NCBI GenBank assembly: GCA_016195665.1
Contig: JACPZD010000024.1
Span: 23,997-87,996, forward strand
DNA length: 64,000 nucleotides
Reading direction: 5' to 3'
Source: Gammaproteobacteria bacterium
GTDB lineage: Bacteria; Pseudomonadota; Gammaproteobacteria; SURF-13
Positions 1 through 30,860 of this stretch are shown here, piece by piece. The notes under the pieces are model-generated. The model was not told the DNA's origin. It was given only the letters and a program-made list of their open reading frames with translations, and did no database searches. The position numbers were made by a program, and so were the translations under genes. Position 1 is the first letter of the stretch, and every line of letters starts with the position of its first letter.

Positions 1-753
1 ATTCAGAATCTCGAAATCATCAAACTGGTAAGCAAGGATTGAAGCGGGTTTGCGTTTGATGTTGAGCGTAGGCAACGGGTAAAGTGTGCGGGTAAGTTGT
101 AAATCCACCTGTTCGAGATGGTTCAGGTAAATGTGGCAGTCACCGCCGGTCCAGATGAAATCGCCTACTCCCAAACCACACTGCTGAGCAACCATGTGAG
201 TGAGTAGTGCATATTCCGCGATGTTGAAGGGCACGCCGAGGAAGGCGTCGCAGGAGCGCTGGGTGAGTTGGCAGGATAATTTTTTATCCGCCACGTAAAA
301 TTGAAAAAAGGCGTGACAAGGGGGGAGCGCCATCTTTTCCAACTCGCCTACGTTCCAGGCGCTTACAATTAATCGCCGCGAGTTGGGGTTGGTCTTGATC
401 TGTTCTATCAGTTCGCCGATCTGGTCTATGCGGCGCCCGTCGGCGCTTTTCCAGGCGCGCCACTGCTCGCCATACACCGGGCCGAGGTCGCCGTTTTCGT
501 CCGCCCATTCATTCCAGATACGCACGCCGTTGTCGTTAAGATATTTAATGTTGGTGTCGCCGCTCAAGAACCACAGCATCTCGTGGATGACGGACTTGAG
601 GTGTAGTTTCTTGGTGGTAACCAGCGGAAAGCCTTCGTTCAAATTAAAACGCATCTGATAACCGAACACGCTTAAGGTGCCGGTGCCGGTGCGGTCGCCC
701 TTGTGTGTACCGTGCTCGCGGATGTGTCGTAGAAATTGCAGATATTGCTTCAT
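1..753 (-). CDS. thyA: thymidylate synthase; 3' end (C-terminus) runs off the window start
   Basis: Minus-strand translation from ATG at 753 reads [11 protein letters not shown]...GDRTGTGT...PPCH..FQFYV, canonical ThyA motifs; start lies 3 nt downstream of the lgt stop, the classic lgt-thyA arrangement. Confidence 0.85.
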
Positions 754-756
754 AAG

Positions 757-1551
757 CTAAATATTATGGATGGAAGATTTTCGATAAGAAAACCATAGGA
801 GCGTCAAACCGGCCACAATCATCGGGACGGACAGCGCTTGCCCCATCGTGAGCCAGCCGAAGGCGAGATAACCCAACTGGGCATCGGGCATGCGCACGAA
901 TTCCACGATAAAACGGAATGCGCCATAGCAAAGTAAAAACAGGCCGGAGACCGCCATCGTAGGGCGCGGTTTGCTGGAGTAGAGCCAAAGGATAACAAAC
1001 AGCACCAGGCCTTCCAAAAAGGCCTGATAAAGCTGCGAAGGATGGCGCGCGAGAGGTCCGCCGTTGGGGAACACCATCGCCCACGGCACGTCGCTCACCT
1101 TGCCCCACAGTTCGCCGTTGATGAAGTTGCCGATGCGCCCCGCGCCAAGACCGATGGGCGCCAGCGGTGCGACAAAATCCGTGACCTCAAAGAAGGTCTT
1201 GCGGTAACGGCGGCCGAAGAGCCACATGGCGATCAGGACGCCCATCAATCCGCCGTGAAACGACATGCCGCCCTGCCAGACCTTGATGATGTTCAGTGGG
1301 GCGTCGAGAAAACCGGGGAGGTCGTAGAACAGCACATAGCCGAGCCTGCCACCCAGCACCGCGCCCAGCGCACTGTAGAAAATTAAATCGCCGATCTGTT
1401 CCGGCATCCAATTCGAACCGGGCCGTTGCGCGCGCCAGCGGCCCAACCACCAGGCGGCGGCGAACCCGACGAGGTACATGAGGCCATACCAGTGGATGCT
1501 GATTGGGCCGAGATGAAGGGCGACAGGATCAATCTGGGGGTAGCGGAGCAT
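757..1551 (-). CDS. lgt: prolipoprotein diacylglyceryl transferase
   Basis: 264-aa ORF; N-terminus ...[23 protein letters not shown] and the G-rich signature match Lgt. Confidence 0.9.
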
Positions 1552-1600
1552 GCCGCAATTATAGACTAGCAGGCAGTCGAATAACAGCCTGTCGGCGATA

Positions 1601-1637
1601 CATGAAAGTCCCCTCCCCGTACGGGGAGGGGTATTTT
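1601..1637. terminator. GC-rich hairpin CCCCTCCCCG-TA-CGGGGAGGGG followed by TATTTT
   Basis: Perfect 10-bp inverted repeat immediately after the stop of the 494-aa gene, between convergent or tandem minus-strand genes. Confidence 0.4.
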
Positions 1638-1640
1638 CGA

Positions 1641-3125
1641 TCAGCTTTTGAGCATACCGCGCAGTATCGCTCGGTACTGTTTGAGGGCGCGCTCCTGGGT
1701 GGTGAGCAAACTCTCGAAGCTGCGTTCGATGGCCGCGGTCACGACCTTATCCAGACTCTTGAGATCGGCAGGCGGTTTGGGCGTGTCGTCAAGGCCTTGG
1801 TGTTTGCCGCGCATGCCGCTCAAGATCTCGCCGAGGATGAGGTCTTCAATGGGACCCACCTGCGGTAGAAAATCGCCGTCATCGGGAATCTTCTCGAGCT
1901 TGAGACGAATATCCAGCGGGATGCGGTCAATAATGAAGCGGTAAATGGTGCATTGCGGAGCATAGCGGCCTAACACGTCGCGCGCCTGGAGGCCGAGATG
2001 AATCGGCTTGAGTTCCAGAACTTCCCATATCTTCGGGTGCCACAGGATGCCCCAGCACAAGGCATTCAACATGCAACTCTGCAACTTGGGCGGGGCGAGC
2101 CACACCGCGAGATTGAGGTAATAGGCCTCGATATATTTCAGTGCATTGAGTCCTTGCGCCGTTTGAGGGTAGCCCCATAGATTGATGTTGAAGAAGTGAT
2201 GCCAGGTGGAGTCGGTGACGATGCGGCCCAAGTCCACCCTATGCCCGTCATAGGCGGCGGCGACCGCCACGGTGCGGCCGACGTCGGCATCCGGCGACAG
2301 GATGCGCCCCCAGGCGATGAGTTCGGGCTTGGCCTGGAAGCCGTTTTTGCTGGGCCACTCGGCCGCCGGGAAGCTGCCCGGCAGAATCACCTCGCCTTCG
2401 TGCTGGTGATCGGGGAAGATTTTTATCGGCCCCCACTGGCTGCAAAACAACGGGTGAGGGTAACGCTTCCACCAACTATAGGACCACGGGAATCCCGCGG
2501 GATAGGTTTTCAGCGACAAGGGTTGCGGGGTGTCGTCGGACTGGTCATCGAATTGAAAACCGGGCGTCGGCCCTTCGCGCAGGGTGTTGTTCCAGAAGGG
2601 CTGAACGGCGTCGGGCGCCGGCCACTGGCGTATCTTGCCGGCGCGCGGGATCTGTTGGCCGATGGCCTGTCCCAGATTGGCGTGATCGCCGGTCATGAAG
2701 ATGCCGCCGCCCTGGTTCATGAAATTATTCAGCGCGGTGATTTCGGCGGCGGTCAATACATTGCCGGAACCTACTCCGAAGAACCAGATCTGGTCGTAGT
2801 TGGCGCTGATATTCAACTGGTCGAGGCGGCTGTTGGGCTGCGATCTCAGCTTGAAGGTCACGTCAAAATTGACCCAGTACCAGGGATCGGACTTCAGCAC
2901 CTGCTTGACCTTGCCGAGATCAAAAGCTGGCGTGCTGCCGGGCGTGAAGGGGTTGGGGAGCGGGTCGGTGAGTGTGACGCCGCTGTCGGAATAAAACAGA
3001 ATGCGCACCTTGCATGGCCTCGGCCGCCACGGCCAGTGTATATAGTCCTCGATTTGCCAACGCGCGCGCAGATCGAGATCGGCGGGGTGCAGTTCGGAAA
3101 CAAGATTCTTGGAGCGTTTAACCAT
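1641..3125 (-). CDS. hypothetical 494-aa protein; a segment (FFGVGSGN...[24 protein letters not shown]) resembles a ThuA/class-I glutamine-amidotransferase-like fold
   Basis: Long ORF with AGGAGG 8 nt upstream of the ATG at 3125; no confident family assignment from sequence alone. Confidence 0.55.
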
Positions 3126-3265
3126 AAGATCCTCCTCATTTCTTGAGCTTGTTGACTGAAGAGACCTCTGAAAAACTCAGGGCCTTGAAGACCTCTGCCG
3201 GGCGGTGATCCCGGCGGGGGGAATTACTACTGCCTTTCCATCCTACACCCAACTATCGGTGCTAG

Positions 3266-4471
3266 CTACCCTAGATAGACGCGAGTAAAAAAGGCATTGA
3301 GGTAGCGGGTTTCGGGGATGGCGGGGTGGACGGGGTGATCGGGGCCTTGCTGGCCCTGTTCGAGGATTTGCAGGTTGCGGTCTACATGACGGCTGGTCTG
3401 CAACAGCACGTCTTGCAGAGCGTTGGATTCAAGGTGGTAGGAACAGGAGGCTGAAATCAGAATGCCGTCCTTCGCCAACACTTGCATGGCCATTTGGTTG
3501 AGTTGGTGATAAGCCTGCAAGCCCTGCTTGAGGTCTTTTTTGCGTTTGATGAAGGCTGGCGGATCGAGTATCACGACATCGAATTTTTGGCGCTCGGCGC
3601 GCAGTGATTTGAGCGCGTCGAAGGCATCGGCCTGTATGCCCGTGACGCGCTCCGTGACGCCATTGAGCGCGGCATTGTGGCGGAGTTGAGCTAGGGCGCT
3701 CTGGGAGGAATCCACGCACAGCACCTCGCTCGCTCCCGCCGCTGCGGCCTGCACGCCCCAGCCACCGAGATAGCTGAAAACATCCAACACGCGCCGGTCT
3801 TTTACATAGTGCTGCATGCGTGCACGATTCATGCGGTGGTCGTAAAACCAGCCGGTTTTTTGTCCGGTCAATACCGGGACGTCGAACACTACGCCGTTTT
3901 CTTCCAGCCTGACCCACTCGGGGGTTTCACCCAGTACCGTTTCAACATACTTTGGCAAGCCTTCCAGAGCGCGACTGGAAGTATCGTTGCGCAGAACGAT
4001 GGCGCGGGGCTTGATGACTTTTTGCAGAGCGGCGACCACCTCTATTTTGACGCGCTCCATGCCCGCGGTGGTGAGTTGCACGACCAGTACATCGCCGTAG
4101 CGGTCCACCACCAGGCCCGGCAGGGCATCGCCCTCGCCGAACACCAGGCGATAATAAGGCTTGTCGAACAACCGTTCGCGCAGTGACAGTGCGATATTGA
4201 GGCGGTGCACCAGCAGCGACTGATCGAGCACGTAGTGCGGGTCACGGCTCACCAACCGCGCGCAGATGAGCGAGTGCGGATTGGCATAGCCGGTGCCGAG
4301 CACGGCGCCATTACTCGCCTCGATGCTGACAAGCTGGCCGGGTTCGAAACCCGTCAGCGGCGTGTGCGCGACGTCCACCTCGTTACTGAATACCCACAGA
4401 TGACCGGTGTGCAGGCGGCGCTCTTCTTTCTTTTTCAGACGCAACGGCGCGAGGGTTTTTGGAGTGCTCAT
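3266..4471 (-). CDS. rlmI: 23S rRNA m5C1962 methyltransferase, class I SAM-dependent (RlmI family)
   Basis: 401 aa; N-terminal PUA-like region (LRLKKKEERRLHTGHLWVF) and C-terminal methyltransferase fold (VLDVFSYLGGWG...DVVILDPP) collinear with E. coli RlmI. Confidence 0.8.
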   Translation of the reverse strand: MSTPKTLAPLRLKKKEERRLHTGHLWVFSNEVDVAHTPLTGFEPGQLVSIEASNGAVLGTGYANPHSLICARLVSRDPHYVLDQSLLVHRLNIALSLRERLFDKPYYRLVFGEGDALPGLVVDRYGDVLVVQLTTAGMERVKIEVVAALQKVIKPRAIVLRNDTSSRALEGLPKYVETVLGETPEWVRLEENGVVFDVPVLTGQKTGWFYDHRMNRARMQHYVKDRRVLDVFSYLGGWGVQAAAAGASEVLCVDSSQSALAQLRHNAALNGVTERVTGIQADAFDALKSLRAERQKFDVVILDPPAFIKRKKDLKQGLQAYHQLNQMAMQVLAKDGILISASCSYHLESNALQDVLLQTSRHVDRNLQILEQGQQGPDHPVHPAIPETRYLNAFFTRVYLG

Positions 4472-4494
4472 TTAAGTGATCTCTGAAAAATATA

Positions 4495-4582
4495 TCGCCA
4501 ACCGCCAAGACGCCAAGGTCGCCGAGAAAAAAGATTTGAATGGTAAGCAAGAAATCTTGGCGGTCTTGGCGCCTTGGCGGTT
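4495..4582. repeat. hairpin repeat family D (CCGCCAAGACGCCAAGG ... CTTGGCGCCTTGGCGG around an AT-rich loop), copy 1
   Basis: Long imperfect palindrome; a second copy at 33208..33288 has about 80 percent identity and the same architecture. Confidence 0.6.
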
Positions 4583-4602
4583 CAACATGACTCAGGATTT
4601 CC

Positions 4603-6072
4603 TTAATAACGCGACGGGCGCGGCCAGGTAATCGGCTGATAGCCCGTGCAGTGTCTTGCGTAGAGGGTGCGCAGCACGGCGCCGTCGGGCGCATAGGCGG
4701 TCACCGGCGGGAGCAGCACGCAATGGGTGAAGGCGCGCAGTAATTCCGGCGGCGGTTCGGTGGAGGTACTTATGTACGCGCCATTACGCCCCGCCTCGCG
4801 TTCGATGCCGGGCCATAGATCGTGTTGATTGTAACGGCGCGTGGCGTTGCCGGTGATGTAAACAGGCATCGGGGTTAGCCAGTAAAAGGCCAGTTCGCCC
4901 GCTAGAGTATACGAATCGGTAAGAATAAATTCGATGGGCTTGCCCGCCTCCTCTAGGGCGATCTGCACTGTCGCCACCGGCGCCTGCCAGGCGCGCATTT
5001 TACGAAACGGGTCCTGCTGACTTGCCAAGCCAAAGCTATAGGGAAAATGGCCGATCGCGATCATCGTCAGCGACATGAACACCCCGACGTAAACAAACGC
5101 CCGCTTCACGCGCGCGAGATTGGGTAGCTGTCCCGCGAACAGAATCAGAAATCCGATATAACCCGGCGCCGCCCAGTTGAGTTGAACCTTGGCGCTGAAC
5201 GCCTTGATTAAAAAAAATCCTAACAGGAACAGCGACGAATACCACAAGAAGCGTTGCTGCTCGGATGCAGGCTTGCGCCATAACACGCTGGCCGCCGCCA
5301 ACACCACCAGCGGCGACAAGGTAAAAATTTGAGTCAGTGAAAAATCCAGCAGGCTGTTCAGCGACCATGTGTCATGCGCGACATGACCCAGCTCGTGACG
5401 AAACATGACCCAATCGTGCTGAGCGTTCCAGAGGACCACCGGGCTGAACAGGACCAGGGCCAGCAGCGCCGCCAGCCACGGATGGGGGGTCTTGAGTTGC
5501 TCGCGGCCGGCGCGGGTGAGCAGCAGCCACCCCCCAACAAAAACAGGCAGCAAGACTATGCTGAGCTTGGTCAGCCCTCCGAGGCCCGCCGCCGCGCCGA
5601 ACTCATACCACGCAAGTGACCGGCCGCGAAACAGCGCACGCCACGCGGCCCACAGACCCCATGTCCACAGCAGCAACAACAGGATGTCGGTGGTCATCAC
5701 CGATCCGAGAGTGAAGAACAGCGGCGTGGTGAGCCCCAACAGCAGCACCCACCCGCTCGCCGCGCGGCTGTTCCACACTTGTTGTGCAAAGTAGAACAAC
5801 AGAGCAAGGAAACCGCTGTAGGCCAACCAGGCGGGGAGGCGGGCTTGCCAGGCGCCGTGGCCGAATAGGGTTTCGGATAATGCAATCAGCCAAGCGACCA
5901 GCGGGCCCTTGGAATAATAAGACCAGTCAAGCTGGCGTGACCATTCCCAGTACTGGGCCTCATCGAAGTGCAGCTCCAGACCTGCGCTCTGCATCAGCAC
6001 GGCCTTGAGGAGCGGCAGGCTGAGTAAAAAAACCGGCAGGGCGAGGATGGCGCCTCTCTTGCCGAGCATCAT
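4603..6072 (-). CDS. glycosyltransferase family 39 (ArnT/PMT-like) polytopic membrane protein
   Basis: Real start is MMLGKRGAIL at 6072, overlapping the upstream stop as ATGA; the 678-aa track ORF is an artefactual N-extension. Motif DEAQYWEWSRQLDWSYYSKGP and more than 10 predicted TM segments. Confidence 0.8.
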   Translation of the reverse strand: MMLGKRGAILALPVFLLSLPLLKAVLMQSAGLELHFDEAQYWEWSRQLDWSYYSKGPLVAWLIALSETLFGHGAWQARLPAWLAYSGFLALLFYFAQQVWNSRAASGWVLLLGLTTPLFFTLGSVMTTDILLLLLWTWGLWAAWRALFRGRSLAWYEFGAAAGLGGLTKLSIVLLPVFVGGWLLLTRAGREQLKTPHPWLAALLALVLFSPVVLWNAQHDWVMFRHELGHVAHDTWSLNSLLDFSLTQIFTLSPLVVLAAASVLWRKPASEQQRFLWYSSLFLLGFFLIKAFSAKVQLNWAAPGYIGFLILFAGQLPNLARVKRAFVYVGVFMSLTMIAIGHFPYSFGLASQQDPFRKMRAWQAPVATVQIALEEAGKPIEFILTDSYTLAGELAFYWLTPMPVYITGNATRRYNQHDLWPGIEREAGRNGAYISTSTEPPPELLRAFTHCVLLPPVTAYAPDGAVLRTLYARHCTGYQPITWPRPSRY

Positions 6073-7085
6073 GCCGAATGCTTCCAGCCCGCCTCGGCTG
6101 ATTCCTCCGGACTTTCGGGGTTGCGCATGATATATGAGCGGGCCTGGCCCGATTCGAAATAGGTGCGGGCAATCAGTTCGCTTAACACACCGGTGGTGAG
6201 AAACTGCACGGCCATCACAATGAGCAATACGCTTATCATCAACAATGGACGAGTGCCGATGTTCTCCCCGAAAAAGATCTTGAGAATGAATAGATAACTC
6301 ATGCCGATGAAACCGATGACGCCGAACGCGAGTGCTATACCGCCGAAGTAGTGACCGGGGCGCGCGCGGAAGCGGATGAAGAAGTACACTGAAAGTAGGT
6401 CCATAATCACGCGGAAGGTGCGCGAGAGACCGTATTTGGAGACGCCGAATTGACGCGGCGAATGAGCGACGACTTCCTCCTTGATGCGCGAGGTTGCCGT
6501 GTGCGCGGCCATCCAGGCCGGGATGAAGCGGTGCATCTCGCCGTACAGGCGGACGTTCTTGATGACCTGCGCGCGATATACCTTGAGGCTGCACCCGTAA
6601 TCGTGCAGGCGCACCTCGGTCATCCGTCCGATCAGCCAATTGGCGATGCGCGAGGGAATGGTGCGCAGCCAGAGGCTGTCTTTGCGGTCTTTGCGCCAGC
6701 CGACCAGCAGATCGAGATCTTCGTCCAGCAGGCGCTGCACCATGCGCGGGATGTCGGCCGGGTCGTTTTGCAGGTCGCCGTCCAGCGTGACGATCACGTC
6801 GCCGCGCGCCGCATCAATGCCCGCCTGCATGGCAGCGGTCTGACCGAAGTTGCGTTGCAGAGTTATGCTGCGTACATGTCCGCCATATTGGGCGATGCCC
6901 TGCCGCATCACTCGTTCCGTGTCGTCTGTGCTGCCGTCACTGACCAGAATCAACTCCCACGGATGGCGATAACCGGCCAGTACCTCGTGCACGCGCGCGA
7001 GCAGCGGCGCGACGCTCTCCGCCTCGTTGTACAGAGGCACGACGAGCGAGACGCGGTGCGCGGTCAACTCAAGGGAAGTGTTCAT
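6069..7085 (-). CDS. GT2 polyprenol-phosphate sugar synthase (ArnC/GtrB-like)
   Basis: 338 aa; VSLVVPLYNE...ILVSDGSTD...TLDGDLQND cytoplasmic GT2 catalytic motifs plus two C-terminal TM helices, as in ArnC/DPM synthases. Confidence 0.85.
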   Translation of the reverse strand: MNTSLELTAHRVSLVVPLYNEAESVAPLLARVHEVLAGYRHPWELILVSDGSTDDTERVMRQGIAQYGGHVRSITLQRNFGQTAAMQAGIDAARGDVIVTLDGDLQNDPADIPRMVQRLLDEDLDLLVGWRKDRKDSLWLRTIPSRIANWLIGRMTEVRLHDYGCSLKVYRAQVIKNVRLYGEMHRFIPAWMAAHTATSRIKEEVVAHSPRQFGVSKYGLSRTFRVIMDLLSVYFFIRFRARPGHYFGGIALAFGVIGFIGMSYLFILKIFFGENIGTRPLLMISVLLIVMAVQFLTTGVLSELIARTYFESGQARSYIMRNPESPEESAEAGWKHSA

Positions 7086-7651
7086 GACGATAGCTGAGAG
7101 CGGGCCCGAATGCGGCGCATAAAATCAGAATATTGTACGCCGATGAGGGCGGCAAGGTAAGCCAGCAGGGTTCCGATCACGGCGCCGGTCAACACCTGAC
7201 TCGGATAGTGCTTGCCGAGATAGACACGGGAGATCGTGACTAATAGAGCGATGCTGAACAGCGTCAGCGCCCATCTGCGCGAACGGGTCATGAAACTCAT
7301 GAAGGTGGCTACCGCAAAAAAATTGAGCGCGTGGTTGGAAGGGATGCCGTTCAACTGAGATCCGCAGCGCCCGTTGGGCAGCCGCAGCAACTCAGCGATG
7401 ACATAGCACGGGCGCGGTTGCGCCCAGAGGTGTTTGGCCAGATTGCCAATCGCATCGCCGACGATGACCAGAGCAAGCAACGCCAGCCACAGCCGCACTC
7501 CATCCCGACCATACTGTTTTATGCTTAGCGCGAGCATAACGGCCAGCAGCGGAAAGGCGAAGGTGTTGCGGTCGGAAAGCCAGGAAAACAGGACATCATT
7601 CCAAGGATGCGCCCAGGACTGGTTGATCCAGACGAGCAGCGCCTCATCCAT
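7082..7651 (-). CDS. PAP2-family membrane phosphatase (variant motifs)
   Basis: 189 aa; KHLWAQPRP, IPSNH and SRVYLGKHYPSQ correspond to PAP2 motifs 1-3 with substitutions; 4-nt overlap with the upstream gene. Confidence 0.7.
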   Translation of the reverse strand: MDEALLVWINQSWAHPWNDVLFSWLSDRNTFAFPLLAVMLALSIKQYGRDGVRLWLALLALVIVGDAIGNLAKHLWAQPRPCYVIAELLRLPNGRCGSQLNGIPSNHALNFFAVATFMSFMTRSRRWALTLFSIALLVTISRVYLGKHYPSQVLTGAVIGTLLAYLAALIGVQYSDFMRRIRARSQLSS

Positions 7652-8627
7652 GTTGGGCAGGTCGTGAAAGCAATAGACTCAACGCACCGCCCAGCAGCGT
7701 GGTGGCCAGCAAGAATAAGTGCAGGTTGACAGCGGCCTTGAAGGCGGCCACGGCCGGTGCGCCGAACGGCAGTAAGGCCGCCACCACGCCCGCCTCGTAG
7801 GTGCCGGCGCCCGCGAAGGCGTGGATGGGCAGCACGCTGGTCACATCGCCGCCAATCACGCCGAGCCAGGCGGCGGCGAACGGGATCTCGATAAACAATC
7901 GCAACACCCAGACAAACACGCCCAGCTTGACGACCCAGTTGATGGCGGTCCACAGCCAGGCGCGCCAGAAGGCGCTGTGGCTGTATGGCAGGCTGGTTAA
8001 AATCTTGTGCAGCAGTCTGCGCGGACGGCCGCCCGGATGGGCGTTCATATAGTTGAGTAGCTTTGCATTAGCCAGAAACAGCAGATACGGCACGCTCAGC
8101 CATAGCAGGCACGCAGCGCCGGCATACGTCCAGGGCCGAAGAGTAATCCCCAGCGCGAGCAGCACCAGGGTGTGCAAGTCCAGCACCCGAAACCATAGCA
8201 GTGCGGGGGTGGAACGCATCAGCGGCACGTCGAAGTAGCGCTTCATGAGTATGGGGAAGGAAACCTCTCCGGTCCGCATCGGGAGCAGATTATTAAAAAA
8301 ATTATGCAGCAGCATGAGCTTGAGACAGGCCGCGAACGCCCCCCGCATTTCATCGCGGAAATAGTCATACAGACGCATGGCCCTGACCCAGTAAGTAAAA
8401 AACGTCAGTATAATAGCCAAGAATAATAGACTATAGGGCAAGGCCCGCCAGGGAGCGAGCAAATTCCGCCAACCGAAATAGAATTCGATCAGCGCCACGA
8501 AGGCGATGAAGAGAGCGATGCCTGTGAGATATGATAGCTTCACGAGGTAGTTTGGCGGGCTGGTTGGCGATGAGGGTGCTGACTCAGTGTAGGTGGCGCG
8601 AGCGCGCAGCGCAACCCTTTCTCCCAT
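7644..8627 (-). CDS. UPF0104 / lysyl-PG-synthase transmembrane-domain (flippase-like) membrane protein
   Basis: Polytopic membrane ORF (LSYLTGIALFIAFVALIEFYFGWRNL...). Start uncertain: alternatives are ATG at 8627 or GTG at 8541; the track ORF extends to 8687. Confidence 0.6.
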   Translation of the reverse strand: MGERVALRARATYTESAPSSPTSPPNYLVKLSYLTGIALFIAFVALIEFYFGWRNLLAPWRALPYSLLFLAIILTFFTYWVRAMRLYDYFRDEMRGAFAACLKLMLLHNFFNNLLPMRTGEVSFPILMKRYFDVPLMRSTPALLWFRVLDLHTLVLLALGITLRPWTYAGAACLLWLSVPYLLFLANAKLLNYMNAHPGGRPRRLLHKILTSLPYSHSAFWRAWLWTAINWVVKLGVFVWVLRLFIEIPFAAAWLGVIGGDVTSVLPIHAFAGAGTYEAGVVAALLPFGAPAVAAFKAAVNLHLFLLATTLLGGALSLLLSRPAQHG

Positions 8628-8657
8628 TCTACGAGGAAGATCATCAAGCAAAAACAA

Positions 8658-8726
8658 TTTACCGCAGAGGGCGCGGAGCTGAACCAAGTCTTTTTGAACT
8701 TATCTCTCCGCGCCCTCCGCGGTGAA
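8658..8726. repeat. hairpin repeat family B (TTCACCGCAGAGGGCGCGGAGGAG ... CTCCGCG.CCTC.GCGGTGAA), copy 1
   Basis: About 22-bp inverted arms around a 25-30-nt loop; four copies in the window (also 30788..30860, 42089..42158, 56494..56552). Confidence 0.7.
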
Positions 8727-8727
8727 T

Positions 8728-10356
8728 ATGGTTTTATCCGAAATGGACTCTAGGGCCCGCGACATGAACAGCCTCACTCGCTCCAACATAGGGCTTTACA
8801 CCCTGTTCGCCGCCTGTGTGCTGGCCGGTTTTTTTCTCAATATCCATGCGGTGCCGCTGTTCGATCTGGATGAGGGCGCCTTCAGCGAGGCCACCCGCGA
8901 GATGTTCGTGCGCGGCGATTTTATTTCCCCCTACCTGAATGGTGAGCCGCGTTACGACAAACCGGTGCTGATCCACTGGCTGCAGGCCGCGAGCGTCTGG
9001 AGCTTGGGGCTTAATGAATTGGCGTTGCGGTTACCCTCGGCCTTGGCGGCCGCGTTGTGGAGCTGGCTGATCTTTCTTTTCACAAAGCGGTACACGACCA
9101 CCGCCACGGCCTTGTATGCCGCCATCATCACGGCCAGCAGCTTGCAGGTCTCGCTCATCGCCAAGGCCGCCATCGCGGACGCCCTATTGAATCTGTTTCT
9201 CAGCGGTGCACTGTTTAGTATTTATCTTTTCTATCAGTCACGCGAACTGAGATATGTCTATCTCAGCGCCGCAGCCATGGCCCTGGGCTTTCTCACCAAG
9301 GGGCCGGTTGCGGTGGTCATACCACTCGCCGTGAGTCTGTTGTTTTTTTTGAGCAAGGGTGAATTCAGGACTTGGCTCATGGCGCTGTTTAATCTTCGTG
9401 CGATGGCGCTGTTCGGCCTGCTGGCCCTGCCCTGGTACGTCGCGCAGTACCTCAGAGAGGGCGACGCCTTTATCCAGGGGTTTTTTTTCAAGCATAATAT
9501 CGCCCGCTTTGGGGAAACCTTTGAGCAGCATGGCGGCGGGGTTTTTTATTATATCCCGGTCGTCCTCATCGGTCTGTTGCCTTATACCGCACTGCTGTTC
9601 AAAACCTTCACCCGTCTCGGCGAAATCGTCAACGATGATCTAAAACGTTACCTTCTGATATGGTTTTTATTCGTCCTGATATTTTTTTCGTTTTCCGGCA
9701 CCAAGCTGCCTCACTATGCGGTGTACGGCTATCCCGCCGCCATCATCTTGATGGCCATGTACCTGGACACATTGCGCTCCGGATTCATGATCCTTCTGCC
9801 GCCGCTGCTCTTGTTTACCGCCTTGCTGTTTCTCCCCGAACTGATTCATGCCTGGCTCGCGGCGGTGCAGGATGTGTTTATTCGAGACACATTGCGCGAT
9901 GCGGGCGATTACTTTTCATTCCCCTACAGATTATTTTTTTCGCTGGCCATTTTACTCACTGTGTACTTTATGTTTGAAAACCGGTTTAGCAATCCGGGAA
10001 AATTGTTGTGCAGCGGGCTCGTTACCGTGACGGGGGTGGCGCTGTTTGTGCTGCCGATAGCGGGGCAGATTTTGCAATCGCCCATCAAGGAGGCGGCGCT
10101 CATCGCCAAGCGGGCCGATTATGCGGTGGTCATGTGGGGACTGAACGCGCCGAGCTTTAATGTTTACAGCGAACGGCTGGTGGAGCGGCGCGAACCGCGC
10201 CCCGGCGAGATCGCACTGACCAAGTCGAGCTATCTGCCGCGCCTCAAGGGCTACGAGACGCTTTATTACAAAAACGGGATTGCGCTCATCCGTGTGAAGT
10301 CACGAATAGACGTATCAAGCCCGGCAGGGCCAGCATCAAACAGCTCAGCGCAATGA
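8728..10356 (+). CDS. ArnT-like (GT83) undecaprenyl-phosphate-sugar:lipid A glycosyltransferase
   Basis: N-terminal FDLDEGAFSEATREMFVRGDFISP matches the ArnT signature (DE.RYAEI.REM). About 12 TM segments. First ATG at 8728 lies inside the family B hairpin; alternative starts at 8743 or 8764. Confidence 0.8.
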   Translation: MVLSEMDSRARDMNSLTRSNIGLYTLFAACVLAGFFLNIHAVPLFDLDEGAFSEATREMFVRGDFISPYLNGEPRYDKPVLIHWLQAASVWSLGLNELALRLPSALAAALWSWLIFLFTKRYTTTATALYAAIITASSLQVSLIAKAAIADALLNLFLSGALFSIYLFYQSRELRYVYLSAAAMALGFLTKGPVAVVIPLAVSLLFFLSKGEFRTWLMALFNLRAMALFGLLALPWYVAQYLREGDAFIQGFFFKHNIARFGETFEQHGGGVFYYIPVVLIGLLPYTALLFKTFTRLGEIVNDDLKRYLLIWFLFVLIFFSFSGTKLPHYAVYGYPAAIILMAMYLDTLRSGFMILLPPLLLFTALLFLPELIHAWLAAVQDVFIRDTLRDAGDYFSFPYRLFFSLAILLTVYFMFENRFSNPGKLLCSGLVTVTGVALFVLPIAGQILQSPIKEAALIAKRADYAVVMWGLNAPSFNVYSERLVERREPRPGEIALTKSSYLPRLKGYETLYYKNGIALIRVKSRIDVSSPAGPASNSSAQ

Positions 10357-11062
10357 CGCGCTGCAATACTTGTGTATCCGCATAACTGGTCACCGGCCAC
10401 AGCAGCAGATACAGCGCCGCCAAGGCGAGCACCGCTGCGATCAGGCGCTGCGTGGCGATCTCCATGCCCCGCGGCCAGCGGCGCGCAAGCTCTATCGCCC
10501 ACACCGCGCTCATCCAGCCGAGCAGCGCCCCGCCCAGTACGTCGAGCGGCCAATGCACGCCCACCATGATGCGCGATAGCCCGACGGCGGCGGCGATGAG
10601 CAACAGGCCCGCCCCTAGCCATCCATTCTTAAAACCGAGTGCGACCACCCCCGCCCAGGCGAAGATAGTAGCCGTGTGGCCGGAGGGAAAGGCCGTGGCC
10701 TTGAGGGCGGGGCCGATGAGATGAAAGCTCTCGGGTGACAACACGGCCGGCGGACGTGCAACGCCGAACGCGAGTTTGAGGCCGACCACCAGCACGGTAC
10801 TGAGTAGACCGGCAATCATGGCTGCCCAGAGGATGTCCGGGCGCCGGCCCGCCAGCGGCAGCAGTAAGATCATGGCAATCCAGCCGTCACCCAGCATCGT
10901 CATGGCCGCCCACACAACATCGTCGGCGAACAGGCCCTGTTTATTAATCCACAGAAACAAGGTGCGATTGCTGCCGGTGATAACTATGGCCGCCATCGCG
11001 AGAACACCGGCGAGCGGCACCAGCCAGCGCCACGGGTTAGCAGGCCAAGCTGATGGACTCAT
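10286..11062 (-). CDS. PAP2-family phosphatase (canonical motifs)
   Basis: 258 aa; KLAFGVARPP, PSGHTA, SRIMVGVHWPLD are the three PAP2 motifs; 71-nt convergent overlap with the ArnT-like gene. Confidence 0.8.
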   Translation of the reverse strand: MSPSAWPANPWRWLVPLAGVLAMAAIVITGSNRTLFLWINKQGLFADDVVWAAMTMLGDGWIAMILLLPLAGRRPDILWAAMIAGLLSTVLVVGLKLAFGVARPPAVLSPESFHLIGPALKATAFPSGHTATIFAWAGVVALGFKNGWLGAGLLLIAAAVGLSRIMVGVHWPLDVLGGALLGWMSAVWAIELARRWPRGMEIATQRLIAAVLALAALYLLLWPVTSYADTQVLQRVIALSCLMLALPGLIRLFVTSHG

Positions 11063-11746
11063 GCCGGCTTTTCGTCCGCAAACACCAGACGTACTTGAGT
11101 CCCCTTGCCGCGGCTGCTGCGCAGATGGATGCGCCAGTTGTAGCGGTCGCAGATGCGCTTGACCAGGGGCAAGCCCATGCCTGCGCCGCCCGGGACGCCG
11201 GCGGTATTGCCGCCGCGAAAGTGGGGCTCGAATACATGCGGCAAGTCGGCGGAGGTAATCCCTACGCCCGTGTCTTCAATACTTATGCTGTCGGCGTCCA
11301 ATTGCACGTTCACCGCGCCGCACCCGCCGGGTGAGCGGATCGTACACCAGATCGGCCACCTGGATGATCGCCGAACCGGGAGTTGCCCCGCGCCGCGTCA
11401 GGGCCTGCAGGCGCGCCTCGATTTCCTGCAACGCAAAGGGTTTGACCACATAGTCATCCGCCCCGCTGTTAAATCCGGCGAGCTTTTCCGGCAAGGTGTC
11501 GCGGGCCGTCAGCATCAGCACCGGCGTATTCTTGCGTGCTTCTTGACGCAATTTTTGGCACAGGTCTACGCCGTCCATCCCCGGCAACATGAGATCGAGT
11601 ACAATGGCGTCGTAGTCGTTCACCACCGCCAGGTGCAGGCCGGTGATGCCATCTTCCGCTACGCTGACCATGTGCCCTTTGTCGCTGAAGAAATCCTGCA
11701 GGATGGACGTGATGCCCATATCGTCTTCTATAATCAGGATGCGCAT
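11059..11746 (-). pseudogene. deletion-fused remnant of a PmrA/BasR-type response regulator and PmrB/BasS-type histidine kinase
   Basis: 11276..11746 encodes an intact receiver domain and the first 20 residues or so of the OmpR winged helix (IQVADLVYDPLTRRVRRGERAI) then stops. 11059..11313, in another frame, encodes only the HATPase_c tail (VNVQLDADSISIEDTGVGI...GGAGMGLPLVKRI), closely PmrB-like. Junction around 11290..11313. Confidence 0.7.
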
Positions 11747-11761
11747 AGCCCCCCATCACCT

Positions 11762-11782
11762 GTAGGGCCGGATTCATTCGGC
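11762..11782. repeat. REP-like hairpin family A (GTAGGGCCGAATTCATTCGGCC), copy 1
   Basis: GGCCGRAT / ATTCGGCC inverted repeat; three copies, all between convergent or divergent gene ends (also 13956..13980, 14935..14956). Confidence 0.6.
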
Positions 11783-11826
11783 CAATTCAGTTCATAGTTC
11801 ACCACACAATCAAAGGTTCCGCAAAT

Positions 11827-13950
11827 ATGTCGCACAGCGAATTCACCAACCGCCTGAGCCGAGAAACCAGCCCCTATTTACTGCAACACGCCCACAACCC
11901 CGTGGACTGGTACCCGTGGGGCCCGGAGGCGCTGGAGCGGGCCCGACGCGAGGGCAAGCCGATCCTGCTTTCGATCGGCTATTCGGCCTGTCACTGGTGT
12001 CACGTCATGGCCCACGAATCGTTCGAAGACCCGGCCACCGCCCAGGTCATGAACGAATTGTTCGTCAACATCAAGGTGGACCGGGAGGAACGCCCCGACC
12101 TCGACAAGATCTACCAAACGGCCCACCAACTCCTCACCGGCCAGGGAGGCGGCTGGCCGCTCACCCTGGTGTTGACGCCGGAGGACCAAACGCCATTTTT
12201 CGCGGGCACCTACTTCCCCCGCACCCCCCGTTACGGCATGCCCGCCTTTACCGACCTGTTGCGACGCATCGAGGCCTTTTATCGCACGCGCGGAGGTGAG
12301 ATCAACCGGCAAAACGCGGCCCTGCTCAACGCCCTGCAAAGCGTCAATCCCGCACCTCTCACGGGCGATGTCACCCTCAACGGCGAGCCGCTGGAAATAG
12401 CGCGCCGCCAGTTGGAAAGCAGCTTCGACGCCCGCTACGGCGGCTTCGGCGGCGCGCCCAAGTTTCCCCATCCCCCACACATCGAACGGCTGCTGCGCCA
12501 TTGGTCACACAGCCGTACCGCCTCCAACGCCGATGGTCAGGCATTAGCGATGGCGAGCTTTACCCTGCAAGCGATGGCGAAGGGCGGCATCTACGATCAA
12601 CTGGGCGGCGGCTTCTGCCGCTACGCGGTGGACGAGCAGTGGATGATCCCGCACTTTGAAAAGATGCTCTACGACAACGGCCTGCTACTCGCGCTGTACG
12701 CGCAGGCCTGGGCGGCCACCAATGATCCCCTCTTTAAGCGCATCGCCCTGGAAACCGCGCAATGGGTAATGCGCGAGATGCAATCGCCCGAGGGCGGTTA
12801 TTACTCCAGCCTGGATGCCGACTCCGAGGGTCATGAAGGCAGGTTCTACGTATGGAGCCGGGAAGAAGAGCGCGCCCTGCTGGATGAGCAGGAGTACAGC
12901 GTCTTCGCCCGGCGCTTTGGACTTGACCGGCCTGCGAACTTTGAGAATCGCTGGCATCTGCATGTATTTGCTGATATCGCAGCAGTTTCCCATGAACTGA
13001 AGCTGAGCGAGACGGAGGTTATAAAAATTCTCGATGCCGCGCGCGCAAAATTACTCAAGGCGCGCGAACAGCGCGTGCATCCGGGACGAGATGAAAAGAT
13101 CCTCACCTCCTGGAACGCCCTGATGATTAAGGGCATGGCGGTAGCGGGCCGTCTACTCAACGAACCGGAATTACTCCACTCCGCGGAACGGTCGTTGCAC
13201 TTCATCAAAACCACACTATGGAGTGACGGCCGGCTGCTCGCCACCTACAAAGACGGCCGCGCGCATCTGATGGCCTATCTGGATGACTATGCCTATCTGC
13301 TTGACGCCGTCCTGGAACTGTTACAGGTGCGCTGGCGAACGGATGATTTGAACTTCGCCGTGCAACTGGCCGAGGTATTGCTGGAGCATTTTAAAGATAA
13401 ATCACAAGGAGGATTTTATTTCACCGCCGACGATCACGAACAACTCATCCACCGCCCCAAACCCCTCACGGACGACGCCACGCCCGCCGGCAACGGCATC
13501 GCCGCCTACGCCCTGAATCGCCTCGGCCATCTGCTGGGCGAGACCCGCTATCTCGACGCCGCCGAGCGCGCACTCAAGGCGGGCTGGGACGACATCACCC
13601 GTGCACCGTATGCCCATGACAGCATGCTGCTTGCCCTGGAAGAGATACTCACTCCGCCACAGATCATCATCCTGCGCGGCGAACCGGCCGACGACGCACA
13701 TGGAAGTGCTAGTGTCGCGGGAGGCAGGACGCCGGGAGCGACGATCCCGGAGTGGCAATCGTTCTGCGCATCGGGTTACGCCCCGCGCCGCCTGTGCTTC
13801 GCCATTCCCGCAAACGAACCCCACCTGCCCGGCGCGCTCGCCCTGCGCGCGCCCAAAGACCGGCCTGTCGCCTATGTCTGCGAGGGTAACGTTTGCAGTG
13901 CGCCGGTGACAGAGTTGGCCGAGCTTGGGCTGCGGCTGGGAGGATCATAG
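11827..13950 (+). CDS. thioredoxin-domain protein, YyaL/DUF255 family with C-terminal six-hairpin glycosidase-like domain
   Basis: 707 aa; N-terminus [47 protein letters not shown] is the family signature. Confidence 0.85.
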
Positions 13951-15504: not shown

Positions 15505-16317
15505 ATGACCAGCCCGCTGCACTTTAGAGCCATTTGGATATCCGATGTTCACCTCGGCATCCGCGCCTGCAAGGCGGAATTTCTTCTCGATTTTCTCAAG
15601 CAGACCCAATCCGATTATCTGTATCTGGTCGGCGACGTGATTGATCTCTGGAGCATGAAAACCTTTTGGTACTGGCCCAAACTGCACAATGACGTGGTGC
15701 AGACCATCCTGAACAAGGCCGCCAACGGCGCCAAGGTCATTTATGTCCCCGGTAACCATGATGAATTGTTTCGCGACTACGCGGGCCACACCTTTGGGAA
15801 GGTGCGCATCTGCACCGAGGCGGTACACAAAACGGCTGACGGGCGCAGGCTGCTGGTAATCCACGGCGATGAATTCGATAGTGTAGTGAAATATAGCAAG
15901 TGGCTCGCCAAGCTCGGCAGTGGGATGTACGAATTTCTATTGTTCGCCAACCGCGGCATCAACTTCTTCCGCCGCAAATTCGGTTTCCCTTATTGGTCGC
16001 TTGCCGCCTATCTGAAACATAAGGTGAAAAACGCCGTGAGCTATATCAGCAAGTTCGAAGAGGTCCTGGTGCACGAAGCCAGAAAACGCAAGCTGCACGG
16101 CGTTATTTGCGGGCATATCCATAAAGCGGCGATCGAAGACTTCGACGGCGTTCTGTATTGCAATGACGGCGACTGGGTGGAGAGCTGCACCGCGCTGGTG
16201 GAGCATCCCGACGGCGCCCTGGCGGTGATACGTTGGGCGGAAGAGAGTGTGTTTTTACTTAAGGAAGGAGAGTATGAAAATAGTTCTAGTCAGCGACGCC
16301 TGGTTTCCGCAGATTAA
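15505..16317 (+). CDS. calcineurin-like metallophosphoesterase, LpxH/PlcP-like
   Basis: 270 aa; ISDVHLG...YLVGDVIDLW...VPGNHDE...HGDEFD...GHIH metallophosphatase motifs in LpxH order. Confidence 0.75.
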   Translation: MTSPLHFRAIWISDVHLGIRACKAEFLLDFLKQTQSDYLYLVGDVIDLWSMKTFWYWPKLHNDVVQTILNKAANGAKVIYVPGNHDELFRDYAGHTFGKVRICTEAVHKTADGRRLLVIHGDEFDSVVKYSKWLAKLGSGMYEFLLFANRGINFFRRKFGFPYWSLAAYLKHKVKNAVSYISKFEEVLVHEARKRKLHGVICGHIHKAAIEDFDGVLYCNDGDWVESCTALVEHPDGALAVIRWAEESVFLLKEGEYENSSSQRRLVSAD

Positions 16318-17335
16318 CGGCGTCGTCACGACGCTCTTCAAAACCAAACAAGAGCTTGAAAAGCTCGGCCACCACGTCATCACTATCACGCCGGATCACT
16401 TCAAGACCATTCCCTGTCCAACTTACTCCGAAATCCGGCTTGCCATTGCCCCCTCTAAAAAGGTTCGCGAGTTATTAAAAACCTTCCAAGCGGATGCCGT
16501 ACACATCGCCACTGAAGGCCCGTTAGGTCTGGCGGCGCGCGCCTGGTGTCTAAAACAAAACTTTCCTTTTACCACTTCGTTTCACACCCGCTTTCCGGAA
16601 TATGTGAAGCTGCGTTTTCATATCCCGCTCGCGCTGACCTACGCCTTTCAGCGCTGGTTTCACGGCGCGGCCCAATACACCATGGTGGCGACCGAGGCGC
16701 TCAGACAAGAGTTGACGGAAAAGGGTTTTCCAAATCTGGTGATCTGGTCACGCGGCGTGGATACGGAATTATTCCGCCCACGCGAAAAAAAGTTACTGAC
16801 GTGTCCACGTCCGGTCTTTAGTTACCTTGGGCGCGTCGCGGTCGAAAAAAATATCGAGGCCTTTCTGAAACTCGATCTGCCCGGCACCAAGTACGTTATC
16901 GGCGATGGGCCGGACATGTCAAAGCTGATGCAGCGTTATCCCGAGGTCATTTTTGCCGGTTTCAAGACCGGCGAAGATCTCGCGCTGCACCTTGCGCAGG
17001 CCGATGTGTTCGTCTTTCCCAGTCGCACCGACACCTTCGGTCTGGTGGTGATCGAGGCGCTGGCTTGCGGCGTGCCAGTTGCCGCCTATCCCGTGCGCGG
17101 GCCGGCCGACATCATCGTCAGCGGTGAGTTCGGTTATCTGGATGAGGATTTACAAAACGCTGCGGTTAAGGCTCTGTCACTCGATCACGTAAGTTGCCGC
17201 GCAGCAGCCCTGAAGTACACCTGGGCGGCTTGTACGCAGCAATTTCTCAGCCATCTCAATCATACCCAGCAAGCGCAGGCCAAGGCACAGACCACTATGG
17301 TTGCCACACAAGATCCAACTCGCGTGCAGCCTTGA
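16274..17335 (+). CDS. glycosyltransferase family 4 (GT-B, retaining); overlaps the upstream gene by 44 nt
   Basis: [20 protein letters not shown]... N-terminus and C-terminal EX7E-like region ([22 protein letters not shown]) typical of GT4. Confidence 0.8.
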
Positions 17336-22539: not shown

Positions 22540-22586
22540 TAAAAAAGGGCGATGCGTGTACGACTGCTCGCACACCCATCGCCCCT
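22540..22586 (-). terminator. intrinsic terminator-type expression platform of the glycine riboswitch
   Basis: Minus strand reads GGGCGATGGGTGTGCGAGCAGTCGTACACGCATCGCCC followed by TTTTTTATT, between the aptamers and the gcvT start. Confidence 0.5.
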
Positions 22587-22589
22587 CTG

Positions 22590-22765
22590 TCCTGTTACCT
22601 GAGAGTTTTATCCCCTTCGGTGCCCGGCAACACACATCGAGTCGTATCGCCGGATCTCTCCAGAATTTATATTACCCTGCGGTCCTTTTGCCTGAGCGTT
22701 TCCGGGCGGTTGCGCCTTCGGCGCCCCGTCATGTTTTTCTATGACGGGGGCTCTCCCACAGGGTA
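22590..22765 (-). ncRNA. tandem glycine riboswitch (two aptamers) in the gcvT leader
   Basis: Minus strand: aptamer 1 GGGAGAGCCCC...GGCGCCGAAGGCGCAACC...CTCAGGCAAAAGGACCGCAG; aptamer 2 CTGGAGAGATCC...GCACCGAAGGGGATAA...CTCTCAGGTAACAGGACAG; both match the glycine riboswitch consensus. Confidence 0.85.
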
Positions 22766-22818
22766 AACATCAGCGCCTACTATACTATGGAGGGCCAAGC
22801 TCTTGCCAGTGTAAAAAC

Positions 22819-30787: not shown

Positions 30788-30860
30788 AATTTCACCGCAG
30801 AGGGCGCGGAGGAGAAATAAGTTATTTGATCGCAGTTCTCTGTGTCCTCCGCGGTGAAAC
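30788..30860. repeat. hairpin repeat family B, copy 2
   Basis: TTCACCGCAGAGGGCGCGGAGGAG...CTGTGTCCTCCGCGGTGAA. Confidence 0.7.

Follow-up and report, generated by a model that had tools for sequence, protein, structure and literature searches.

The question raised by the locus described here is what a compact group of six genes might be modifying when it encodes two different glycosyltransferases of ArnT type, a single synthase that could supply them, and two phosphatases, and yet brings with it none of the genes for making a sugar nucleotide. The window (meaning throughout the whole stretch of DNA that was analysed, 64,000 nucleotides or 64 kb of contig JACPZD010000024.1 from a Gammaproteobacteria metagenome-assembled genome (MAG), assembly GCA_016195665.1) contains, between positions 4603 and 11062, genes for two glycosyltransferases of the GT-C fold (GT-C1 and GT-C2), a glycosyltransferase of family GT2, two membrane phosphatases of the PAP2 family (PAP2a and PAP2b) and a membrane protein of the UPF0104 family. 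The answer favoured here, to which we would give a rough probability of 0.55, is that the locus would constitute a three-component periplasmic glycosylation system in which two phosphatase/transferase pairs replace the phosphates of lipid A with sugars.

Gene identities were established from a listing and translation of open reading frames (ORFs), followed by Pfam and NCBIfam profile scans, and all six genes that an earlier note on this DNA had listed are indeed present, with the families and coordinates it gave. Four of them make up the core, on the minus strand and transcribed in the order UPF0104, PAP2a, GT2, GT-C1. The first gene, UPF0104 (also PplT or COG0392; 7644–8627), encodes a membrane protein of 327 residues (Pfam LPG_synthase_TM, 5.4e-23); it is followed by PAP2a (7082–7651; 189 residues, membrane PAP2 phosphatase family, Pfam PAP2 6.1e-24), by GT2 (6069–7085; 338 residues, of the type of ArnC, GtrB and dolichol-phosphate mannose synthase (DPMS), with two C-terminal transmembrane helices, Pfam Glycos_transf_2 3.7e-30) and finally by GT-C1 (4603–6072; 489 residues, an ArnT-fold glycosyltransferase, Pfam PMT_2 5.9e-28). 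Because the start/stop overlaps along these four genes amount to 8, 4 and 4 nt, they look like one translationally coupled operon. The start of GT-C1 is the ATG at 6072, in an ATGA overlap with the GT2 stop, and the 678-residue ORF is over-extended; the UPF0104 ORF reaches back to a TTG at 8687, and the ATG at 8627 is where an independent gene call, made on an identical contig, places the start.

Divergently from this operon, beyond an intergenic region of 8628–8721, GT-C2 lies on the plus strand (8722–10356; 544 residues, or 530 from an alternative start at 8764; a close ArnT homologue, Pfam PMT_2 3.9e-17). PAP2b (10286–11062; 258 residues, canonical PAP2 phosphatase family, Pfam PAP2 3.9e-21) is the one gene whose orientation had been misjudged: said to follow GT-C2 on the plus strand, it is in fact on the minus strand, convergent with GT-C2 rather than in an operon with it, the 3' ends of the two genes overlapping by 71 bp (10286–10356). 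Since this overlap is not seen in relatives (loci L004 and L014) and the last ~19 residues of GT-C2 are unconserved, the tail of either GT-C2 or PAP2b is probably a lineage-specific extension. The proteins of this part of the window have GenBank entries (MBI3344460-65, from a Gammaproteobacteria MAG) that carry generic names only, and a scan of 4300–12000 for promoters and terminators gave nothing above shuffled expectation.

The reading given above draws first of all on the company that these genes keep in other genomes. When GTDB species were scanned, each represented by a single genome, 443 confirmed relatives of GT-C1 emerged, and the best 80 loci were taken with their flanks. The carriers of these 80 are gammaproteobacterial MAGs (Competibacteraceae, bins labelled as Chromatiaceae or Ectothiorhodospiraceae, Thiomargarita and symbionts), Accumulibacter and, at about 30% identity, Nitrospirota/Thermodesulfovibrionia. 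Wherever the organism behind a related locus was identified, which was so for 84 loci, it proved to be a diderm bacterium of the Proteobacteria or Nitrospirota. When mapped by tblastn, most proteobacterial loci have the co-directional UPF0104-PAP2a-GT2-GT-C1 set, and GT2 orthologues (56–77% identity) stand beside GT-C1 in 66 loci. Where enough flank is available, all four core genes are found in 28 of 35 proteobacterial loci and in 7 of 7 Nitrospirota-like ones, the order in Nitrospirota being a PAP2-GT-C1 fusion, then GT2, then UPF0104. Such an arrangement is far beyond chance, and a gene set that is conserved while its order is shuffled is good evidence for functional coupling.

GT-C2 and PAP2b, for their part, form an accessory pair that travels together: a GT-C2 orthologue is present in 16 loci, and in all 16 it has PAP2b beside it, in three arrangements relative to the core. 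PAP2a in turn is tied to the pathway by in-frame fusions, present in 31 loci: 16 join it to GT-C1 (3 in Ectothiorhodospiraceae and 13 Nitrospirota-like), 11 to GT2 (in Competibacter and Accumulibacter) and 4 to PAP2b. Fused PAP2+PMT_2 proteins are also to be found in the protein database (fusion proteins P0082, P0095 and P0107). Two cultured organisms carry GT-C2 in a reduced setting: in Thioalkalivibrio (GCA_000378965.1) the orthologue (48% identity) is divergent from UPF0104-GT2, making a minimal trio, and in Beggiatoa alba (52% identity) it is divergent from UPF0104-DUF3108.

No sugar-nucleotide, aminotransferase, deformylase, deacetylase, arnA/B/D or arnE/F gene was found in the cluster or among the 43 long ORFs of the window that were scanned (a scan that omitted a few ORFs of at least 200 residues and all shorter ones), nor does any sugar-nucleotide, deacetylase, arnA/B/D or arnE/F gene occur among the recurrent neighbours in the 80 related loci, which are of housekeeping type (RlmI, Lgt, a BioA-like aminotransferase, NadC-like, FBPase-like, HIT and acyltransferase proteins) apart from DUF3108; the arn genes may of course be encoded in another part of the genome. 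The earlier claim that the module lacks such genes holds over this whole range, and with a housekeeping nucleotide sugar as donor their absence would call for no special explanation.

The last of the neighbours just listed deserves a separate mention. In 13 loci of Competibacter type the gene directly upstream of GT-C2 encodes a secreted DUF3108 protein, and in Beggiatoa alba such a gene comes directly downstream of UPF0104. The sites noted are at about 5.5 kb upstream of GT-C1 in Competibacter loci (these include L021, L023, L025, L026 and L028), at L083 4179–4973 and at L084 4255–5049. The protein could belong to the module as an additional component, one that has no copy in this window.

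Turning to the proteins themselves, GT2 is predicted to be a polyprenyl-phosphate glycosyltransferase that makes the lipid-linked sugar donor. It matches ArnC (9BHC, 3e-50), Synechocystis GtrB (5EKP, 1e-32) and archaeal DPMS (2e-13) at full length, and its alignment with ArnC and GtrB spans residues 10–327, the C-terminal transmembrane part included. It scores 198.5 bits on the NCBIfam ArnC model NF007986, for which the cut-off is 529, and so is not an ArnC equivalog. An attempt to read the identity of the sugar from these similarities was dropped, as the ranking ArnC > GtrB > DPMS is not discriminating.

A donor made at the cytoplasmic face needs some means of crossing the membrane, and for this UPF0104 is the candidate flippase. 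It scores 82.4 bits on PF03706 (gathering score 33.4; the Nitrospirota counterpart reaches 156.7 bits, 1.3e-45), and in a fold comparison its sole match was MprF, specifically the transmembrane domain. It is also the only additional membrane protein in the cluster, which contains no member of the GtrA, SMR/ArnEF, MATE or Wzx families. UPF0104 is the only flippase candidate for the polyprenyl-phosphate sugar, and it keeps company with GT2 and a GT-C in more than one phylum, as well as in the Thioalkalivibrio trio; its translocating activity, direction and cargo are suggested by gene context only. Some precedent exists for such a role: Makarova et al. found UPF0104 in archaea as a neighbour of a GT2 resembling AglD and of a PMT/STT3-like protein, and they predicted COG0392 proteins to be flippases (PMC5898192); GpgF and HexF are bacterial UPF0104 flippase candidates, and UPF0104 genes that stand alone are known from glycolipid operons (PMC12713373); and the family as a whole has been proposed to act as general lipid translocators (preprint 10.1101/2022.03.11.483950). 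It must be remembered that flippase activity has nowhere been demonstrated for stand-alone members (PMC12713373; preprint 10.1101/2022.03.11.483950).

The two transferases stand at different distances from ArnT. GT-C2 matches the ArnT of Cupriavidus metallidurans (5EZM) at 8e-25 (phmmer), and the invariant positions in an alignment of 19 orthologues include D48, D50, E51, D79, K80, D153, R262 and Y332. Invariant residues of GT-C2 align with ArnT D55/E56, E84/K85, D158, R270 and Y345 (numbers that presumably follow the ArnT structure paper), which we take to be the residues of catalysis and of binding to the phosphate of undecaprenyl phosphate (Und-P). As judged from the alignment, then, GT-C2 appears to keep the catalytic and Und-P-binding residues of ArnT; the histidines of the ArnT Zn site are unconserved in it. 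GT-C1 is related to ArnT only distantly by profile (E 0.005), and ArnT is the closest structure to its predicted model. Both proteins appear to possess the GT-C fold, the acidic motif in the first loop and the carrier-phosphate-binding residues. On the NCBIfam ArnT model NF009784 (cut-off 567 bits) GT-C2 scores 157.1 and GT-C1 26.6 bits, so that neither is an equivalog, and these values, together with that of GT2 on the ArnC model, bear out the earlier view that the module differs from an Arn locus. Since GT-C1 and GT-C2 share 26% identity over 184 residues (E 0.017), they represent two old lineages and not recent paralogues.

The labels GT39 and GT83 previously attached to these two proteins are approximate; both are ArnT-like GT-C proteins, and neither reaches the Pfam PMT cut-off (PF02366, 21 against 22.7 bits). 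The thought that they might prove to be protein O-mannosyltransferase homologues was considered and rejected, there being no MIR domain in either and the PMT model lying below threshold for both. A search of plasmids brought up only distant relatives, GT-C1 being 28–31% identical to Rhizobium GT39 proteins and GT-C2 about 30% identical to a Pantoea ArnT. In two plasmid loci (L086, Rhizobium rhizogenes pC6.5d, 5683–9874, and L085, R. tumorigenes, 142–9812) the distant GT-C1 relative adjoins a GT2. On its other side there is in one case a phosphatase of dual specificity (tyrosine-phosphatase-like) and in the other a PAP2 accompanied by a two-component system. The former recalls Caulobacter CtpA, for which a part in lipid A dephosphorylation has been proposed (PMC9393093).

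As for the phosphatases, PAP2b has the canonical motifs KX6RP, PSGH and SRX5HX3D, kept in 12 of 13 orthologues, and its best match in the PDB, over its whole length, is Aquifex aeolicus LpxE, which acts as a lipid A 1-phosphatase (6EBU, 2.7e-17). The same structure is the best PDB match of PAP2a (8e-7), in which the motifs are the variants KX6RP, PSNH and SRX5HX3Q; among PAP2a hits, 49 of 66 have Gln for the last Asp (these being proteobacterial orthologues), and the Nitrospirota versions have Asp. The two proteins are deeply divergent from each other (32% identity over 62 residues). Low identity is usual in this group, proven LpxEs sharing about 14–17% with one another, and the LpxE of H. pylori is without the last motif Asp, a residue described as not strictly required (PMC6581854).

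Put together, these observations suggest a mechanism of the following kind. At the cytoplasmic face GT2 would move a sugar from a common nucleotide sugar onto Und-P, and UPF0104, being MprF-flippase-like, would carry the resulting Und-P-sugar to the periplasmic face, where two unrelated acceptor pairs would await it, PAP2a/GT-C1 belonging to the core and PAP2b/GT-C2 being accessory. Each PAP2 would take a phosphate off the acceptor at that face, most likely the 1- or 4'-phosphate of lipid A, and each GT-C would then glycosylate the freed position from Und-P-sugar, one pair per position, to leave a phosphate-poor, sugar-capped lipid A. Since Und-P is both the substrate of a GT2 of ArnC type and what the GT-C enzymes set free, such a pathway has no diphosphate of its own to hydrolyse, and with the PAP2 genes adjacent or fused to those of the GT-Cs the PAP2 proteins would be best explained as preparing the acceptor. 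The general logic of Und-P charging in the cytoplasm, export by a flippase and GT-C transfer outside is an established one (PMC11127046), and the part of the earlier note that proposed it, with charging by a GT2 (here ArnC/GtrB-like), a flippase-like protein and two distinct ArnT-like GT-Cs, is supported.

The replacement of lipid A phosphates is put forward because lipid A is the target of the only characterised systems, within the literature searched, in which a membrane phosphatase occurs together with a GT2 resembling ArnC and a GT-C resembling ArnT (PMC9393093, PMC5644692, PMC2233673). In rhizobia, LpxE (position 1) and LpxF (position 4') dephosphorylate at the periplasmic face, after which RgtF and RgtD add galacturonic acid (GalA) from the product of RgtE (PMC9393093), and Mesorhizobium loti has an rgtE-rgtF-lpxE cluster (PMC5644692). 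In the lipid A of Aquifex both phosphates give way to GalA (PMC6581854), and in Francisella mannose is reportedly added at the phosphate-free 4' position after LpxF has acted (PMC2233673). For the present locus the gene content, folds, catalytic residues, conservation, pairing and fusions are observed, and it is the acceptor, the replacement rather than decoration of its phosphates, the direction and cargo of UPF0104, the assignment of pairs to positions and the sugar that we infer. Concerning the last of these, the module comes with no deacetylase, aminotransferase or deformylase, which makes an amino sugar (4-amino-4-deoxy-L-arabinose (Ara4N), galactosamine (GalN) or glucosamine (GlcN)) less likely than a hexuronic acid or a neutral hexose. 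As to positions, the sizes of the proteins (544, 258, 489 and 338 residues here) parallel those of rhizobial RgtF, LpxE, RgtD and RgtE (547, 271, 473 and 338; PMC7795004), and this, although a weak hint only, would assign position 1 to PAP2b/GT-C2 and position 4' to PAP2a/GT-C1.

Several points weigh against this reading and account for the caution with which it is offered. The phosphatase activity of PAP2a is assumed, with Gln standing for the charge-relay Asp and PSNH for PSGH in Proteobacteria; no PAP2 lies nearby in the GT-C2 loci of Thioalkalivibrio and Beggiatoa, so that GT-C2 may not be dependent on a phosphatase; and no lpx, kdtA, msbA or waa gene occurs among the recurrent neighbours of the 80 loci. 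The PAP2a-GT2 fusions would fit a role as undecaprenyl diphosphate (Und-PP) phosphatase equally well, and Aquifex LpxE itself also dephosphorylates C55-PP and phosphatidylglycerol phosphate (PMC6581854). No account of the lipid A chemistry of any carrier was found in the literature searched, and no cultured, named member of the Chromatiaceae was among the best 120 matches of a search seeded with the GT-C1 of a Chromatiaceae MAG. A link to the phosphate-free, mannose-bearing lipid A of cultured purple sulfur bacteria, which had also been considered, was not established by homologue search and is a literature lead only (PMC2233673).

Some of these points lend themselves to other explanations. 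It is conceivable, if unlikely, that the GT-Cs add their sugar onto the lipid A phosphates, forming a phosphodiester in the manner of ArnT (as for Ara4N or GalN), and that the PAP2 proteins, acting separately, trim unmodified phosphates or work in an LpxT-like way, so tuning the number of sites; ArnT-style addition to phosphates, with PAP2 proteins limiting the sites, is also what had been suggested earlier for this locus. GT-C2 is after all clearly homologous to ArnT and shares its key residues, the cultured Thioalkalivibrio and Beggiatoa manage with GT-C2 and UPF0104 (and in the former case GT2) and no PAP2 nearby, and in P. aeruginosa the PAP2 protein LpxT physically interacts with ArnT (PMC13142001). 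However, neither GT-C nor GT2 attains an Arn equivalog score, and cationic sugars, the usual point of such decoration, are made improbable by the want of aminotransferase, deformylase and deacetylase genes in the scanned ORFs of the window or as recurrent neighbours in the 80 loci. The 16 PAP2-GT-C fusions and the strict adjacency of PAP2b and GT-C2 fit sequential action at one site better than they fit antagonism. The pairing and the fusions therefore favour a scheme in which phosphate is removed and the freed hydroxyl glycosylated, as with LpxE/RgtF and LpxF/RgtD, and disfavour the one first suggested.

An acceptor other than lipid A is an alternative with a similarly small chance of being right. 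It could be a sugar of the lipopolysaccharide (LPS) core (as for RgtA/B/C), a phospholipid or a diacylglycerol freed by PAP2, a periplasmic glycan, or a protein subject to PMT-like O-glycosylation. In so far as both GT-Cs fall in PMT_2, whose members use acceptors of many sorts, and GT-C1 is so distant from ArnT, the range is wide to begin with; the lack of conserved LPS genes beside the module, and the association of the UPF0104 relatives GpgF and HexF with glycosylated phospholipids and glycolipids (PMC12713373), point the same way. Set against this are the confinement of the module to diderm carriers among the 84 loci, the fact that the nearest solved structures and sequences are those of the lipid A enzymes ArnT and LpxE, and the lipid A acceptors of the characterised phosphatase, ArnC-like GT2 and ArnT-like GT-C systems cited above, and for a protein acceptor in particular the missing MIR domain and the sub-threshold PMT score.

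Least probable, by a little, is that the PAP2 proteins act not on the acceptor but on the carrier lipid, converting Und-PP to Und-P so as to supply or recycle the carrier for GT2, with the GT-Cs acting on an acceptor that needs no prior dephosphorylation: the best NCBIfam matches of both are undecaprenyl-diphosphatase models (SepP and PRK11837, scored far below cut-off), JGI gives several homologues the name 'undecaprenyl-diphosphatase', PAP2a is fused to GT2 in 11 loci and Aquifex LpxE can act on C55-PP, but the pathway itself, going by what is generally known of ArnC/ArnT and GtrB, yields no Und-PP, two such divergent PAP2 proteins are each tied to a different GT-C, and the PAP2a-GT-C1 fusion, with both active sites periplasmic, recurs in 16 loci and two phyla.

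If the phosphate-replacement reading is right, an unusual, phosphate-poor lipid A would be present in organisms of wastewater phosphorus removal, nitrification and sulfur cycling. It would also provide a flippase candidate for lipid A glycosylation of the Rgt type, and a testable cargo for the very widespread UPF0104/YbhN family. A bolder version, in which stand-alone UPF0104/PplT is the dedicated Und-P-sugar flippase of a widespread bacterial pathway and the module gives a fully phosphate-free, doubly glycosylated lipid A, is decidedly more speculative, and we would sooner expect it to fail than to hold; it would supply the ubiquitous, uncharacterised family (YbhN/COG0392) with a first concrete cargo, and its carriers would span environmentally dominant, uncultured groups such as Competibacter, Accumulibacter, giant sulfur bacteria and Nitrospira-related lineages. 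The natural PAP2-GT-C, PAP2-GT2 and PAP2-PAP2 fusions suggest a single membrane complex and could aid structural work, and the six genes would, were the reading correct, make a compact cassette for engineering dephosphorylated, glycosylated (low-endotoxicity) lipid A. Should the model prove wrong, the cluster would still be a conserved periplasmic glycosylation system, whatever its acceptor.

Two features immediately around the module were looked at as possible regulators. The divergent intergenic region holds a 22-nt inverted repeat (arms 8657–8678 and 8706–8727), the second arm of which runs into the GT-C2 start codon. The palindrome resembles repetitive extragenic palindromic (REP) elements, its unit CCGCAGAGGGCGCGGAG occurring in 7 copies in the window against 0.84 expected by chance (at 8657–8727, 30795–30811, 42094–42155 and 56498–56549, mostly as inverted pairs and intergenic), and the repeat is missing from the equivalent divergent region of relatives; since it is both dispersed and unconserved, it was rejected as an operator and is taken to be a dispersed repeat.

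The other feature lies at 11059–11746, directly upstream of PAP2b and on the same (minus) strand, and consists of an OmpR-type receiver with a cut-short DNA-binding domain (11276–11746) and the C-terminal 84 residues of a histidine kinase (11059–11313). The receiver matches Pfam Response_reg at 3.8e-27, the kinase piece covers only profile positions 38–107 of HATPase_c, and in a three-frame reading the two pieces are in different frames; this is a deletion remnant of a two-component operon, decayed and probably non-functional. In the related loci mapped by tblastn it is not seen beside the module, and as an unconserved remnant these genes were rejected as its regulator. The plasmid locus of R. 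tumorigenes mentioned above (L085) has an intact order of response regulator, histidine kinase, PAP2, response regulator, GT39 and GT, and because of this the remnant may record the lost regulation of a lipid-modification gene.

The flanks of the cluster are otherwise housekeeping in nature (an RlmI-like methyltransferase, Lgt, a DUF255 thioredoxin-like protein and a PfkB kinase), and the remainder of the window holds glycine cleavage genes, an ABC transporter, UvrD, a type II secretion operon, RuvB and Tol-Pal genes. A tandem glycine riboswitch (22577–22768, minus strand; 70 + 47 bits) lies upstream of gcvT and gcvP1/P2, which is an ordinary arrangement. A match to the Xanthomonas small RNA sX9 (49368–49441, plus strand; 48.3 bits, gathering score 44) adjoins the window's only low-GC stretch (50001–52000; GC 0.476 against about 0.60), which encodes an HxlR-type regulator and may be a small acquired island. 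At 15505–17335 (plus strand) a gene for a calcineurin-like metallophosphoesterase overlaps that for a GT4 glycosyltransferase by about 70 bp, and these could be another envelope-glycan pair. Two ORFs on the minus strand are without a family: one of 494 residues (1641–3125), which matches no Pfam family at E <= 0.001 and competes with an opposite-strand ORF of 316 residues (2196–3146), and one of 340 residues (55402–56424), which matches none at E <= 1e-5.

It remains to compare the locus with known systems. The closest, going by published descriptions (PMC9393093, PMC5644692), is the rhizobial Lpx/Rgt system, which has the same combination of PAP2 phosphatase, ArnT-family GT-C and ArnC-like GT2, the last being a polyprenyl-phosphate GalA synthase; it likewise has two different phosphatase/transferase pairs for two positions, and adjacent PAP2 and GT-C genes. 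The present module differs in its carriers (Gammaproteobacteria, Accumulibacter and Nitrospirota), in having all its parts in one locus, in the variant motif and frequent fusions of PAP2a (to GT-C1, GT2 or PAP2b), and in the presence of UPF0104 as a conserved fourth component. Within the literature retrieved, the word 'flippase' is absent from the rhizobial and Caulobacter lipid A papers that name rgtD and rgtE.

With the Arn system (arnBCADTEF) the locus shares a GT2 that is a full-length ArnC homologue, a GT-C2 that is an ArnT homologue and a GT-C1 whose model lies nearest ArnT, as well as the sequence of charging a carrier, flipping it and transferring the sugar in the periplasm. Unlike Arn, however, it has PAP2 partners and no ArnA/B/D in the cluster, its scores are far below the equivalog cut-offs, and there is no ArnE/F, the abutting core genes leaving no room for small SMR genes. 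Francisella, with FlmF1/FlmF2 and FlmK alongside LpxE and LpxF, resembles it in that ArnC-like synthases make Und-P-mannose or Und-P-GalN for transfer by the ArnT-like FlmK (PMC2233673). There, however, one GT-C serves both positions with two GT2s and two donors, whereas here there are one GT2 and two GT-Cs; moreover the genes are not arranged in phosphatase/transferase pairs, and the paper names no flippase (PMC2233673). The locus belongs to none of the Arn, Flm/NaxD and Lgm types.

The UPF0104/PplT/COG0392 group (the MprF N-terminal domain, the C-terminal domain of archaeal AglD, GpgF, HexF and YbhN) has PF03706 and an MprF-like fold in common with the protein found here, which differs in standing alone, without the aminoacyl-phosphatidylglycerol synthase domain, and in that, in diderm bacteria, it is linked with a synthase of ArnC type and transferases of ArnT type. 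Gtr systems (GtrA, GtrB and a GtrC-type transferase), finally, show the same grouping of a polyprenyl-phosphate-sugar synthase, a putative flippase and a GT-C (PMC11127046), with GT2 resembling GtrB at 1e-32; here, by contrast, the flippase candidate is not of GtrA, SMR or MATE type, two GT-Cs share one donor arm, the PAP2 proteins are integral to the set, and the presumed acceptor is lipid A rather than O-antigen.

The statement in the earlier note that this is not a described arrangement therefore has to be divided. The idea of UPF0104 as a flippase is not wholly new, the archaeal neighbourhood with GT2 and a PMT/STT3-like protein (PMC5898192) and GpgF/HexF (PMC12713373) being precedents, and the rgtE-rgtF-lpxE cluster of M. 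loti (PMC5644692) had shown part of the arrangement as well. What does appear to be new is that bacteria conserve UPF0104 in combination with PAP2 phosphatases, a synthase of ArnC type and transferases of ArnT type, together with the presence of two such pairs in one locus, the frequency of fusions and the taxa involved.

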